A stretch of DNA of 4,891 bases. Source: a virus. Lineage: Duplodnaviria > Heunggongvirae > Uroviricota > Caudoviricetes. A model generated the notes under the pieces. It worked only from the letters and a program-made list of their open reading frames with translations. It was not told where the DNA came from and ran no database searches. Position numbers and translations under genes: made by a program. This document shows, piece by piece, positions 1-4,891 of the stretch. The first letter of the stretch is position 1. Each line of letters starts with the position of its first letter. The stretch is taken from the IMG/VR virus record IMGVR_UViG_2585427789_000012; one strand, 5' to 3'.

Positions 1-265
1 GCGTTTCCCCGTTCTGGCCTGTCCACTGGCTCACCTGCATGTTACCCGCCACGCTCACCAGTTCGCCTTTGTGGTGTTTTGCCAGTGCGTCGGCCTGTCT
101 GCCAAACGCCAGGACAGATAACCACATCGTCGCCGTTCCGTCATCTGCCTGGCTGCACGGCAGGGGAACCGCCATACTCGCCATCGCCATTTGTGTCCCT
201 TTGCTGGTGGTCTTTAACTGCGGGTCAGCCACCAGCCGCCCGTAAGCCGCTATCTGTGCTGTCAT
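1..265 (-). CDS. Partial CDS (N-terminal 88 codons; gene continues past the window start): SSB-like OB-fold single-stranded-DNA-binding protein
   Basis: Minus-strand frame is open from ATG at 265-263 to the window edge; it is absent from the ORF track because it has no stop in the window. Translation MTAQIAAYGRLVADPQLKTTSKGTQMAMASMAV...WLSVLAFGRQADALAKHHKGELVSVAGNMQVSQWTGQNGE aligns by eye to E. coli SSB at the conserved G.L..DP...W..V..FG..A...KG..V...G...WT.Q.G positions. The ATG overlaps the stop of the upstream ORF (ATGA at 262-265). Confidence 0.6.
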   Translation of the reverse strand, partial: MTAQIAAYGRLVADPQLKTTSKGTQMAMASMAVPLPCSQADDGTATMWLSVLAFGRQADALAKHHKGELVSVAGNMQVSQWTGQNGET

Positions 266-507
266 GCTGTCTGCTCTCCGGTTTTAACGTTGATGGTTGT
301 CACCTGTTCCGCTTCGGCAATCTCCCGTTCTGTCAGCGTGGCAAAGTTTGCCGCTGCCGTGGTCATGAATGCGCTTACCAGTTCGGGATGTGCTTTTGCG
401 TACCCTTCTCCCGCGTTGCGGTCGATGATTTTTATCGCCACCCTCAGCCAGTGTTCTGTCAAATCAAGGGCGTGAGATTGTGGTTTTTTTGCGTGCTTCG
501 TTGTCAC
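262..507 (-). CDS. Hypothetical protein, 81 aa
   Basis: ORF with GTG start at 507-505, preceded by SD GAGGT (515-519 on the minus strand) at 7-nt spacing. Its stop is coupled to the SSB-like start. No family recognised. Confidence 0.5.
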   Translation of the reverse strand: MTTKHAKKPQSHALDLTEHWLRVAIKIIDRNAGEGYAKAHPELVSAFMTTAAANFATLTEREIAEAEQVTTINVKTGEQTA

Positions 508-551
508 AGGCTTTACCTCACAGCAATAAAATAAAATTTTTGCATTTTAAC

Positions 552-781
552 CCTTCACCTGTTCACCTTTTGAGATTTTCCCTTTTTATTCATAATGTTA
601 AGGGGTGAACAGTTTCACAAAAACTATTCACCAACTGTTCACCACTGTTCACCCTTAAAGCTCAATAAATAATCAAAAAGGTGAACAGTGAATAGTTTGG
701 TGAACAGTTCACAAATAACTGTTCACCCTATAATGTACTGATATAAAAGATATTTATAACAGGGTGAACAGTGGTGAACAG
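552..781. repeat. Iteron array: nine perfect copies of CTGTTCACC/GGTGAACAG plus degenerate copies; crr/ori-like replication element
   Basis: CTGTTCACC at 559-567, 635-643, 645-653 and 719-727. The inverse GGTGAACAG at 604-612, 680-688, 699-707, 763-771 and 773-781. Degenerate copies at 552-559, 613-618, 627-632, 688-695 and 708-712. An AT-rich stretch (728-762) sits inside the array, which lies directly downstream of the replication gene. Confidence 0.8.
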
Positions 782-794
782 TTATTCCATAAGT

Positions 795-2609
795 TTAATT
801 TTTGCTGTCGTCATTTGTGACCGATGCACATGATGGCATCCAGTCTTCTGAATCCTCTGTCAGTGTCACATTTGAACGCAAACCGTGCTTCGTTTTCCGT
901 TTTATATACTCCCTGCCATATTCCGCCATTGCCCCCGGCATATCTTTACCGAAGCGCGTCAGTGTTACAGGTTTACCGAATCCGTGTGCCCTCATATATG
1001 CCAGATAGGCGTGATAAAGATACCTGCGCGGACTGAACGGAATAATTTCGGCATTACCCACTAACAGACCATCACACATTACCGACGACATGAGATAGCC
1101 ACAGAAGTCCACCAGCGAATCGCCCTCGCGTTTTATCACCAGAGCTTCTTCTGATTTCTGCTGCTCATACAGCAGGCGTTTAGCTTCGTCCTGGTCAGAA
1201 AAACGAGTAAGCAGATGGCGAATCACAACCGCCAGCTCTCCTTCTATTTTTTCTGCCAGCATGGGGTCGCGCTCGTTCTCCGGTACAACCTCCGAAAAAT
1301 TGAATATCACCCGACGACGTGAGATCCCCCCGCTGCGGTCACTGAATGACATGGCGTTATTGTTCACCGCCAGCACGACCGCCTGAATGCGTGTTGAGTA
1401 GGGGGCTTTATGCTTCGGGTCGATTGCCACCTTGTCACCGCCTGTAATAGCCTTAATTCCTGCGCCATCACCAGCGTAGCGGGTCATATCCGGCATGATA
1501 ATCAGCGAAAAGCCAACCACTAACGCGCGTTCCCTTGCATCTTCCAGCGCCTTCATGCTTGCCGATACTGTGTTGGCCTTACCCGCCAGCATGGTGCAAA
1601 TCTCCGCCATCACGCTTTTACCACTTCCCCCTGGACCTGTTACCTCAATGAATAACTGCCAGTCGTACCGGTTCGCCAGCACCATGAATAATGCAGCCAG
1701 CACGCGATCCGTCTTGCGGTCATTCTCTGCCACCGAGCAGCGTAACCACTTCCAGAAATTCGGCGCATGTGTTGCCAGCGTTTCCCCCTCTGCTGGTGGG
1801 CTGAAAGGTAATTCACTGGCAATTAACAACCAGTCGTTTTTGTTATGCTCCCGAAAATTACCTGTTCTGGTATCAAATACCCCGTTACTGAATCCAATCA
1901 GGTTACGGGCTGTATTCCCCATTACAGGCAAACTTAACTTCATGGTATCGACCGCCGATTTAATGGCGTTCTGCGAATAGCTGATCTCCGCATCAATGAA
2001 AATCTGCGCCATAGCACGCTGTAACTCTTTATCCTGAATCGGCTCCCATACAACGCCGTTGTAATGGTGAACAGTGTCAGAGTCGGCATGAATCGCCAGT
2101 TCACCGCCATAATGTGCCAGGAGAACTTCGCCGCGCTGGCTTGCTCCCATCTGGTTAAGCGCCAGTGGTGCGGCGCTGTCTTCTGTTTTTTTCTTAACAG
2201 GAAGCTGAATCACCAGACCATCAGAAAGATTCTGGCGCTCACGGGCCAGATATTCGCGCCAGTTCTGCACCTCCTGGCCGTGCATACCCTCAGGATAAAA
2301 ATTTGCATCCTGTACGCCTGCCGCCGCCAGCTTCTGACCAATCGCCTTTATCATTACTGGCGCAAGATATCCGGCCCTGAATATGCGCACGGATTTTCTG
2401 CCTTCCGGCACAATTTGCAGCTTATCCAGTTCGGATAACTGCTGCTCCCCAAGCCACACAGGAGGCTCATTATCTCCGGCCATACGCGCGTCATGTTCCT
2501 GCCATTGTTTTGCGTGTGACCAGGCATCACTACCCGCAAAAATAATGACTTCTGTTTCTTTGTGTTTTATGCCGCGTGACTGCTGTTTTACGTTCGGTGC
2601 CAGTTTCAT
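795..2609 (-). CDS. P4 alpha-family replication protein (D5_N-like region plus SF3-type P-loop NTPase; 'phage/plasmid primase, P4 family' C-terminal type), 604 aa
   Basis: Walker A VTGPGGSGKS near residue 325, followed by ITGGDKVAIDPKHK...NNNAMSFSDRSGGISRRRVIFNF, which is typical of P4-alpha/D5 helicase cores. SD AGGGG lies 6 nt upstream and the ATG overlaps the upstream stop (ATGA at 2606-2609). The first ~300 residues contain no Cys, so no zinc ribbon is present. Confidence 0.88.
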   Translation of the reverse strand: MKLAPNVKQQSRGIKHKETEVIIFAGSDAWSHAKQWQEHDARMAGDNEPPVWLGEQQLSELDKLQIVPEGRKSVRIFRAGYLAPVMIKAIGQKLAAAGVQDANFYPEGMHGQEVQNWREYLARERQNLSDGLVIQLPVKKKTEDSAAPLALNQMGASQRGEVLLAHYGGELAIHADSDTVHHYNGVVWEPIQDKELQRAMAQIFIDAEISYSQNAIKSAVDTMKLSLPVMGNTARNLIGFSNGVFDTRTGNFREHNKNDWLLIASELPFSPPAEGETLATHAPNFWKWLRCSVAENDRKTDRVLAALFMVLANRYDWQLFIEVTGPGGSGKSVMAEICTMLAGKANTVSASMKALEDARERALVVGFSLIIMPDMTRYAGDGAGIKAITGGDKVAIDPKHKAPYSTRIQAVVLAVNNNAMSFSDRSGGISRRRVIFNFSEVVPENERDPMLAEKIEGELAVVIRHLLTRFSDQDEAKRLLYEQQKSEEALVIKREGDSLVDFCGYLMSSVMCDGLLVGNAEIIPFSPRRYLYHAYLAYMRAHGFGKPVTLTRFGKDMPGAMAEYGREYIKRKTKHGLRSNVTLTEDSEDWMPSCASVTNDDSKN

Positions 2610-3397: not shown

Positions 3398-3602
3398 TCA
3401 GGATGGCTTTAGCCTCATTCAGCGCCATATCAGCACTAAATTGCATAAGAGCCAGTGAGTGAGGAACGAAAGCCCCGGTATATTCTGTTTCGCTGGTGGC
3501 GTGCTTATGCGCCTTGTCTGCGATAACAGAAATATCAATCAGCGCGTGCATCAGCGTTTTGATGGCTTCGGCGGCTGCGTCCGGTGTGGTTTTATTGTGC
3601 AT
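3363..3602 (-). CDS. Hypothetical protein, 79 aa
   Basis: ATG at 3602 with SD-like GGGGGA 6-7 nt upstream; it overlaps the stop of the upstream gene by 11 nt. The C-terminal codons run through the G8 homopolymer. Confidence 0.6.
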   Translation of the reverse strand: MHNKTTPDAAAEAIKTLMHALIDISVIADKAHKHATSETEYTGAFVPHSLALMQFSADMALNEAKAILIADCENGGGYA

Positions 3603-3798
3603 AGGTTTCCCCCTGGCGAATACGGGCGGCGAATACCATCACGCAGCCATCAGGAGATTGCTGACGCGCTTCCTGTTCGCTGGTGGCCTCAATGGTAATC
3701 ACGCGCGGTTGTGCCGTGCTCAGGGCGATAAAACGCCAGATGTATTTATTCAGGTTGTACGAGTCCCGCCCTTGCGGGTGTCTGGTATAATTTCTCAT
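3592..3798 (-). CDS. Small protein, 68 aa, first gene of the leftward operon; possibly Icd-like (host cell-division inhibitor family)
   Basis: ATG at 3798 with SD GAGG at 5-nt spacing. It is the C-terminal 68 codons of the 382-aa track ORF (MRNYTRHPQGRDSYNLNKYIWRFIALSTAQPRVITIEATSEQEARQQSPDGCVMVFAARIRQGETYAQ). The Icd-like label is from recalled annotations of P4-like prophages and is not verified. Confidence 0.55.
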   Translation of the reverse strand: MRNYTRHPQGRDSYNLNKYIWRFIALSTAQPRVITIEATSEQEARQQSPDGCVMVFAARIRQGETYAQ

Positions 3799-3905
3799 AG
3801 CTGCCTCGATACTTCTGCTATCGTTGGTGGTTAGACGCCCTGCATGTGTTGCGAGCACTGCGGGGCGTTGCTTAATTTGAGTGACAAAACTCAAACTGTG
3901 CGCAC

Positions 3906-3935
3906 AGATTAAAATCATGTGTGCGCACATGTCAA
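3906..3935 (-). promoter_or_regulatory. Candidate leftward early promoter (-35 TTGACA at 3935-3930; -10 TAATCT at 3911-3906, 18-bp spacer)
   Basis: Perfect -35 hexamer on the minus strand with a moderate -10; predicted start near 3899, giving a ~100-nt leader before the ATG at 3798. Confidence 0.4.
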
Positions 3936-3938
3936 TAC

Positions 3939-3967
3939 TTAACATCTCATTTTTTTTGCTGTATTGT
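3939..3967 (+). promoter_or_regulatory. Candidate rightward promoter (-35 TTAACA at 3939-3944; -10 TATTGT at 3962-3967, 17-bp spacer)
   Basis: Sigma70-like hexamers read by eye, positioned divergently from the leftward promoter and upstream of the ATG at 4004. Confidence 0.3.
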
Positions 3968-4003
3968 GTGCGCCCATAAAGTCCATTTAAGTGAGGTGCA
4001 TCA

Positions 4004-4201
4004 ATGTCTAGCGGTAACACAAACAACAAATCAGCAAAGAAAAATATTCGATTCCCACATGAGCTTATAGATGGGATTGATGCCAGCGTTGAACAAGAAA
4101 AATTAACTAATCCTAGTGCTAATTTTTCCGCATGGGTCTTAGATGCCTGTGGACGCAAATTAAAATATGAACAGCGCCGGAAGGCCAAAGAATCAGAATA
4201 A
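4004..4201 (+). CDS. Small DNA-binding protein, 65 aa; putative ribbon-helix-helix (CopG/Arc/ParD-like) regulator
   Basis: SD AGGT 6 nt upstream of the ATG. KKNIRFPHELIDGIDASVEQEKLTNPSANFSAWVLDA fits the RHH pattern of an N-terminal beta-strand followed by two helices. It is divergent from the early operon and next to the palindromic operators. Confidence 0.5.
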   Translation: MSSGNTNNKSAKKNIRFPHELIDGIDASVEQEKLTNPSANFSAWVLDACGRKLKYEQRRKAKESE

Positions 4202-4243
4202 TCACTATCAGCGCCGTGGTGTGAGTAACTACGGCGCATTGCT

Positions 4244-4432
4244 ATGCAGGGCAACACAATGACCGATAAAGAATTGACCAAAACATTATCACCGACACGG
4301 AAAAGACGGCGCAGAAAGATAGAGCATGAATCAGAAAGATTCGCACCTTGTTCGTTTGCTCTTGAGAAATTCCTTAAAGAGCGCAGGAAAAAACTCTCGT
4401 TGCAAACCTTGGAACGAACCAAATCTGACTGA
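4244..4432 (+). CDS. Hypothetical very basic small protein, 62 aa (or 57 aa from the ATG at 4259)
   Basis: ORF containing TRKRRRRK; weak SD for the 4244 start, AGGG 9 nt upstream of the 4259 start. A terminator follows. Coding status is uncertain. Confidence 0.3.
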   Translation: MQGNTMTDKELTKTLSPTRKRRRRKIEHESERFAPCSFALEKFLKERRKKLSLQTLERTKSD

Positions 4433-4498
4433 TCACATTGCCCACCAGCCGCAAATGTGGCATTGTTGGTGATGCTTTTGTTTTCCCTTGTTCCCACT

Positions 4499-4527
4499 GG
4501 CGACCCTTTTGCGGTCGCCTTTGTTTT
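4499..4527 (+). terminator. Rho-independent terminator (stem GGCGACC/GGTCGCC, 7-nt loop, TTTGTTTT tail)
   Basis: Perfect 7-bp GC-rich stem at 4499-4505 and 4513-4519, followed by a U-tract at 4520-4527. A weaker bulged hairpin with a U-rich tail precedes it at 4443-4484. The reverse complement has no U-tract, so it is + strand specific. Confidence 0.65.
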
Positions 4528-4565
4528 GCCTGTTATCCGGCAATAGTGGCGCTTCACCACACGGT

Positions 4566-4574
4566 TGATATAAT
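4566..4574 (+). promoter_or_regulatory. Extended -10 promoter element TGATATAAT
   Basis: Perfect TATAAT at 4569-4574 with TG at 4566-4567; no good -35, which extended -10 promoters can lack. Predicted start near 4581. Confidence 0.4.
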
Positions 4575-4580
4575 TCCCCT

Positions 4581-4651
4581 GCACTGATCCATTTTTTTCG
4601 CAGCAGGTTAATTGTTCAGAAAGGCGGTTCCTTATCGGGGCCGCTTTTTTT
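4581..4651 (+). ncRNA. Candidate ~70-nt small RNA (from the extended -10 promoter to an intrinsic terminator)
   Basis: Predicted start near 4581. Terminator hairpin GCGGTTCC (4624-4631), loop TTATC, GGGGCCGC (4637-4644; two G-U pairs), then T7 (4645-4651). No ORF of note lies between them. Confidence 0.3.
4624..4651 (+). terminator. Rho-independent terminator (8-bp stem, 5-nt loop, T7 tail)
   Basis: Stem GCGGTTCC/GGGGCCGC with two wobble pairs, followed by TTTTTTT at 4645-4651. Confidence 0.55.
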
Positions 4652-4891
4652 ATGCCTGAAAATACCCGATAACATGGCTTTTTAGTTTCACCAGGACGAA
4701 CGAAGCCCCGCCCCTGTTCGGGCGTATATCCAGTATTCATGGTTAGATCTCTGTGTTAGTGGATGGGTGGCGGCGGTGCGCCGCCAGCCTGATTAGTGAA
4801 CTGCCTCGCGGCTGTCCTTCCATGCCAGAACTTCGGATAAAGACCAGCCAACGGAACGACCGCCGAGTTTACGCCGTGATGGGAATTGTCC

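Follow-up and report, generated by a model that had tools for sequence, protein, structure and literature searches.

The 81-aa open reading frame (ORF) and the gene for a single-stranded DNA-binding protein (SSB) at the beginning of the window, i.e. of the whole 4,891-nt stretch of DNA analysed here, rather probably form an optional accessory cassette in the replication module of a capsid-forming PICI (cf-PICI) in E. coli yifB, with the SSB serving the replication of the island. Both are real genes under purifying selection, as indicated by low pairwise dN/dS values (0.06-0.22 for ssb, 0.11-0.40 for the 81-aa ORF) and by many homologues. They are located on the strand of the primase gene, directly downstream of the primase/helicase and of an iteron origin.

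The window is 100% identical to a chromosomal segment of E. coli E600003 (locus L001), where it lies inside an island of about 15.06 kb (L001 3709-18771) that splits yifB into two fragments. The island starts with genes for a tyrosine integrase and an AlpA regulator, a divergent YlcI/YnfO gene, an Icd-like gene and three small ORFs. The middle part consists of a DUF4222 gene, the gene for a 604-aa primase, the iterons, the 81-aa ORF, ssb with a product of 141 aa, a ProQ/FinO-domain gene and an 82-aa ORF, and the island ends with genes for the major capsid protein, prohead protease, portal, head-tail connector, HNH, TerS and TerL. Phage_integrase and Phage_AlpA were matched in Pfam searches, and Phage_capsid, Peptidase_S78, Phage_portal, Phage_connect_1, HNH, Terminase_4 and TerL_ATPase/nuclease all exceeded the Pfam cut-offs. 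The annotations of the island contained no tail, lysis, holin or lysin genes, and sid, psu, delta and epsilon of the P4 gene list were likewise not annotated. Since the island has its own capsid and packaging genes and none of these four P4 genes is annotated, the element is classed, from its genes alone, as a cf-PICI of E. coli and not as a P4-type satellite. The architecture that defines cf-PICIs and the criteria for their recognition have been described (10.1101/2022.09.08.507074; 10.1101/2025.02.11.637232; PMC10085698). In common with cf-PICIs, as known from the prototype EcCIEDL933 (Alqurainy et al.; 10.1101/2022.09.08.507074) and from the SatelliteFinder survey (PMC10085698), the island has a size of about 15 kb, which falls into the range of about 10-18 kb for this class, and the gene order int, alpA, small genes, primase/rep, origin, capsid, protease, portal, connector, HNH, TerS and TerL; tail and lysis genes are absent from cf-PICIs as they are from the annotation of this island, and the likeness to EcCIEDL933 is one of architecture. 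A scan of the window with Rfam for P4 CI/isrK-type immunity RNAs yielded no match, nor was any other Rfam family matched. The mechanical ORF list also contained a 382-aa ORF at window positions 3592-4740 (minus strand). RefSeq places at these positions a 207-nt Icd-like gene (3592-3798) and a truncated pseudogene (4197-4740); the YlcI/YnfO (DUF3950) gene occupies 4004-4201 of the other strand. The 382-aa ORF is probably not a gene.

The primase/helicase gene (795-2609, minus strand) encodes a 604-aa protein of the P4-alpha (D5-like) type with matches to the Pfam families D5_N, DUF5906 and Pox_D5; its score against TIGR01613 was 96 bits, below the cut-off of 108.7. Residues 137-594 were 49.5% identical to P4 alpha (76% of the length). 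The first ~136 residues had no Pfam match and did not align to P4 alpha, which indicates that the N-terminal (primase) part differs from that of P4 alpha. Ten copies of GGTGAACAG, counted at no more than one mismatch and present in both orientations, form an iteron array at 559-781, the putative replication origin. Over the whole window 13 matches to GGTGAACAG were observed against 0.98 expected, and none of 200 shuffles reached 13. The iteron core TGTTCACC coincides exactly with the annotated P4 type 1 ori/crr repeat, and the primase/helicase is the probable initiator acting on the iterons. The array borders the 81-aa ORF, so the two genes indeed sit just past the iterons, where the initial annotation had placed them. 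Three more iteron-like sites, one exact and two with one mismatch, were found within the primase coding sequence at 2066-2074 (plus strand), 2097-2105 (minus strand) and 1360-1368 (minus strand); two of these form an inverted pair at a distance of 23 nt. Since chance alone would produce about one such site in the window, those within the primase gene may be chance occurrences or a second binding site.

These features invite comparison with the P4 replicon, for which the reference repeats lie at 4291-4590 and 9310-9413 of NC_001609.1 (L049). The helicase and origin-binding part of the P4 initiator is homologous to that of the island, the octamer TGTTCACC is identical, and in both elements the repeats are situated directly downstream of the initiator gene (crr in P4). 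The N-terminal part of the P4 initiator, however, is unlike that of the island, and the remainder of the island is not P4-like. Neither ssb nor a homologue of the 81-aa ORF occurs in P4, whereas the island has both. The annotated P4 genome contains no ssb, and P4 was not found among the organisms of the GenBank phage records matched by the island SSB in tblastn; the statement of the initial annotation that an element-encoded SSB is not part of canonical P4 thus holds. That the element is a P4-type satellite which gained ssb is very improbable. Such an origin would agree with the identity between the primase/helicase and P4 alpha, with the shared type 1 repeat core and with the position of the array directly behind the primase gene, but it is opposed by the lack of annotated sid, psu, delta and epsilon, by the island's own capsid, protease, portal, connector, HNH, TerS and TerL genes and by the failure of primase residues 1-136 to align with P4 alpha. 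As a class of element, a P4-type satellite was ruled out by gene content, cf-PICI genes being present and P4 genes unannotated. The initial annotation had proposed either a mosaic replication module or a different satellite or island lineage. The second option was borne out by the cf-PICI gene content; the first applies in part, given the P4-like replicon (primase and iteron core) and the occurrence of the ORF/ssb cassette behind several unrelated initiators.

The window covers the 5' part of ssb (1-265, minus strand), i.e. 88 of 141 codons read from an ATG start in a stop-free translation. The gene continues beyond window position 1 and was completed from the identical E. coli record (L001 11840-12265, WP_000126639.1), which gave the full protein of 141 aa. 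What had been described as a partial gene with an SSB OB-fold pattern showed a clear similarity to the SSB family: the 88 residues within the window matched PF00436 with an E-value of 8.3e-14 and 51.9 bits, above the curated cut-off of 26 bits, and the full protein scored 62.7 bits against TIGR00621 (cut-off 53.95). The island SSB also matched phrog_44 (SSB; E 1.5e-39), and 27 of the 28 PDB sequences which matched at E ≤ 0.01 are SSBs. The best PDB match was 2cwa (E 2.3e-10, residues 4-99), and the E. coli structure 1eqq was matched at E 3.8e-5. Judged from its sequence, the second gene encodes an SSB of the bacterial type, in which a short linker connects an OB-fold domain to a D-N-I-P-F tip at the C-terminus.

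The identity between the island SSB and E. coli SSB (P0AGE0) is 26%. Both proteins have an N-terminal OB-fold domain, a disordered linker and a tip ending in IPF, and the island residues W48, F54 and W81, which are invariant in the clade, aligned with W54, F60 and W88 of the E. coli protein. With 141 aa the island SSB is shorter than its E. coli counterpart of 178 aa. In the alignment the position of the E. coli H55 is occupied by a leucine, and W40 of the E. coli protein has no equivalent because the L23 loop is shortened in the island SSB; the binding mode and the oligomeric state could therefore differ. The linker of the island SSB is short, basic and Gln-rich, that of E. coli SSB long and rich in Gly, Gln and Pro. 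The C-terminal tip of E. coli SSB is the docking site for partner proteins. The island protein ends with DDPYGDNIPF, so that its tip reads DNIPF as compared to DDIPF in E. coli SSB. Among 14 sequences, D137 and F141 of this tip were invariant and I139 and P140 were present in at least 90%. Hosts of the clade are Escherichia, Shigella, Salmonella, Citrobacter and Klebsiella. A tblastn search of the GenBank phage records for relatives of the island SSB retrieved only sequences at ~30% identity or less, mostly from Firmicutes phages.

Members of this SSB clade are present in classical PICIs (Nissle 1917, O157:H7 and Citrobacter) as well as in cf-PICIs. They follow initiator genes of four unrelated types, namely a D5/P4-alpha primase (L001, L002 and L045), a RepA-family helicase (L003), a DUF927 primase (L047) and a Zn-primase-helicase (L044), and the complete cassette of 81-aa ORF and ssb was found behind at least three kinds of initiator. 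In vB_KppS-Ant, a related cf-PICI whose primase is 74.5% identical, the origin is directly followed by the capsid gene and the cassette is missing; the island studied here has a four-gene insert between origin and capsid gene, comprising the 81-aa ORF, ssb, the ProQ/FinO-domain gene and the 82-aa ORF. The ssb of the Nissle 1917 island is a frameshifted pseudogene. The four initiator types, the absence from vB_KppS-Ant and the frameshift in Nissle 1917 show the cassette to be optional and exchangeable.

Several other genes and elements were noted around the cassette. The gene directly downstream of ssb, which lies just outside the window at its position-1 end (L001 11273-11803, minus strand), encodes a 176-aa ProQ/FinO-domain protein, a putative RNA chaperone, that was matched by FinO NF010317 (E 5e-18) and ProQ NF003434 (E 9e-16), both below their cut-offs. 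The pairing of ssb with a ProQ/FinO-domain gene recurs in the island of E. coli F11 (L047 2967-3464), and a frameshifted PerC-family gene is located further downstream of ssb in the same island (L047 2336-2561). Genes for PerC-family transcriptional regulators also follow ssb in the O157:H7 PICI (L003 8636-8908) and in the Klebsiella element (L044 8049-8321). PerC/Pch-type regulators are tied to the control of virulence genes in pathogenic E. coli. The Klebsiella element, recorded as a circular 22.9-kb 'plasmid' of K. pneumoniae (NZ_CP033626.1), resembles a satellite-type element with genes for an integrase, an Icd-like protein, DUF4222, a primase-helicase, SSB, PerC and a tape-measure protein. 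The record LR881103.1 (L046; 16.5 kb), named 'Escherichia phage vB_KppS-Ant', combines the cf-PICI architecture with a gene annotated as tape measure protein.

The first gene of the cassette occupies positions 262-507 on the minus strand. It was present in the ORF list, starts with GTG at 507-505 and is also called by NCBI PGAP; a GAGG motif at 516-519 (minus strand), 8 nt upstream of the GTG, resembles a Shine-Dalgarno sequence and may function as such. The initial annotation had referred to an unknown 81-aa ORF. The protein matched phrog_1231 over virtually its full length (E 2.2e-49, residues 2-80 of 81), a family with no assigned function that is also matched by its distant relatives. Searches of Pfam, NCBIfam and PADLOC yielded no match for the 81-aa protein, family searches with ten of its distant relatives likewise none, and tblastn detected no relative in the GenBank phage records. 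Close homologues (162) were confined to enterobacteria; when 1.84 billion cluster representatives were searched with a profile, 727 relatives were retrieved at E ≤ 0.001. The latter are mostly 60-130 aa long and have the core IDxxFGEGYAKxHPELIAAFMxTAA. In the 81-aa protein the conserved core is IDxxxGEGYAKxHPELxxAFMxTAA, of which GxGYAKxHPELxxAFMxTAA is nearly invariant in the family.

A first AlphaFold model of the 81-aa protein was weak (pLDDT 65.5). With a deeper alignment a helical hairpin was predicted (H9-32 and H41-75) at a mean pLDDT of 76.8 and with 84-95 in the core. Foldseek found nothing for this model in the PDB (best E 5.9) and matched only three uncharacterised phage proteins in BFVD, which are probably members of the same family. 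The phrog_1231-type family is spread over Proteobacteria, Verrucomicrobia, Desulfobulbaceae and others, and some relatives adjoin D5, DUF927 or AlpA genes. In Neomegalonema MAGs (L016, L019, L020, L022, L023 and L032; ~5950-6215) distant relatives are located between two CoA-transferase subunit genes, and in Roseovarius (L035-L043) they adjoin amidohydrolase genes; these apparently housekeeping contexts indicate that the family is not confined to mobile elements. In many islands no other gene lies between the origin and the 81-aa ORF. The product of this ORF is most likely a small accessory or regulatory factor associated with replication or with the origin. It is quite unlikely that the family represents a new type of origin-, helicase- or SSB-associated replication factor and that, separately, the tip-bearing SSB clade is a tool for the takeover of the host SSB interactome.

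The two genes overlap in an ATGA at 262-265 (minus strand), where the ATG of ssb (265-263) shares nucleotides with the TGA of the 81-aa ORF (264-262). This overlap, already pointed out in the initial annotation, is retained in two further E. coli islands, those of Nissle 1917 (L002) and O157:H7 (L003), and in the Citrobacter island the junction reads TAAATG. The arrangement suggests translational coupling of the 81-aa ORF and ssb. Such coupling would be accounted for if both proteins formed a two-protein unit, with the 81-aa protein acting, for example, as a loader, chaperone or regulator of the SSB. The conservation of the 4-nt overlap in three E. coli islands and the abutting genes in Citrobacter are in line with this explanation. 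The same applies to the contiguity of both genes in complete E. coli genomes, of which 1728 out of 5426 matched the 701-nt two-gene segment and 924 covered at least 80% of this query, and to the Klebsiella element, in which a small ORF (126 aa) also overlaps the start of ssb. The Klebsiella ORF, however, is unrelated to the 81-aa ORF. Moreover, in E. coli F11 (L047) ssb comes straight after the DUF927 primase gene without the 81-aa ORF, and strain 2013C-3277 has the 81-aa ORF without ssb. In 39 of 40 loci from other genomes that encode relatives of the 81-aa protein, the neighbourhood gave no SSB hit; in the remaining one, from Shigella (L004), the relative is followed by a degraded fragment of ssb. 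The HMM used for these neighbourhoods was built mostly from the PICI clade and could miss a very divergent SSB; Pfam scans served as a control and revealed no SSB among the 25 most frequent families of immediate neighbours, nor among ten further downstream proteins. With these observations a two-protein unit appears distinctly improbable. Each gene was found alone and relatives of the 81-aa protein occur without an SSB, which argues for a lineage-specific arrangement and not for an obligate partnership. A role of the 81-aa protein as obligate partner of the SSB was ruled out by the solitary occurrence of each gene, the unrelated ORF in the Klebsiella slot and the relatives lacking an SSB. In two islands ssb is broken downstream of an intact 81-aa-type ORF, by the frameshift in Nissle 1917 (L002 9001-9443) and by degradation in Shigella flexneri (L004 6219-6695). 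The absence of the cassette from one cf-PICI and these broken ssb genes indicate that island replication is not strictly dependent on the cassette.

A scan of window positions 1-1000 revealed no promoter-like site on the minus strand and no terminator. As no terminator-like site separates it from the primase gene, the pair is probably part of the same helper-induced, AlpA-dependent transcript. Under the reading favoured here, an accessory function of the cassette in island replication, the primase/helicase would open the iteron origin after AlpA-dependent induction triggered by the helper, and the island SSB would coat the displaced single strands. Its host-like tip could then recruit replication and repair proteins of the host, e.g. 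the chi subunit of Pol III and PriA. The island would thereby possess an SSB supply of its own which supplements the host pool while helper and island replicate together. The occurrence of one SSB clade behind four initiator types suggests that the SSB acts generically on single-stranded DNA (ssDNA) and host partners and not via a cognate initiator. In Gram-negative PICIs, Primase, SSB and DUF5906 have been described as replication genes which colocalise with mapped origins (Mageeney et al. 2023; PMC10111431).

The SSB might instead be a competitor or decoy, in which the tip captures host SSB partners (ExoI/SbcB, RecQ, RecJ, PriA and chi) or the protein masks ssDNA against RecA, helper recombination or ssDNA-sensing defence. 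In either form the island would gain an advantage over the helper, or incoming DNA would be protected. The initial annotation had likewise suggested, as a speculation, that such SSBs may interfere with functions of host or helper. No part of this protein, otherwise so distant from E. coli SSB, is better conserved than the tip, D-[DN]-I-P-F, the clade is restricted to satellites and other small elements with no closer relative in bona fide phages than those at ~30% identity, and the optional presence of the cassette is typical of accessory or counter-defence genes. According to a 2026 preprint (10.64898/2026.04.29.721553), the triggering of DRT10 requires an SSB-like phage protein whose tip reads FDDDIPF, which indicates that tip-bearing proteins of this kind can interact with the ssDNA metabolism of the host. 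On the other hand, ssb is situated within the replication block beside the origin and outside the known accessory hot spots, no PADLOC model was matched, and the prototype cf-PICI was reported to be harmless to helpers (10.1101/2022.09.08.507074). We therefore regard a decoy function as rather unlikely.

The presence of ssb in the replication modules of Gram-negative PICIs is already known, and the finding is in this respect correct but ordinary. RefSeq annotates the island protein as single-stranded DNA-binding protein (WP_000126639.1), and the module described by Mageeney et al. (2023; PMC10111431) displays the same association of SSB with primase/DUF5906 and origin as this island. That study categorises the SSB only, without functional work or mention of the small upstream ORF. 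The searchable literature yielded this categorisation of the SSB; work on the function of PICI SSBs or of phrog_1231 was not found there, and ssb is not mentioned in the main text of the cf-PICI papers (10.1101/2022.09.08.507074; 10.1101/2025.02.11.637232; PMC10085698). The significance of the analysis lies mostly in the correct classification of the element, a cf-PICI with a P4-type replicon and not P4. Beyond that, it describes a separate clade of SSBs whose C-terminal tip resembles that of the host protein. About a third of the complete E. coli genomes carry this clade on satellites, often with a small conserved protein coupled to the SSB. If the SSB redirects host partners to the island or affects helpers or ssDNA-sensing defence, it would add a further layer to the conflict between satellite, helper and host.
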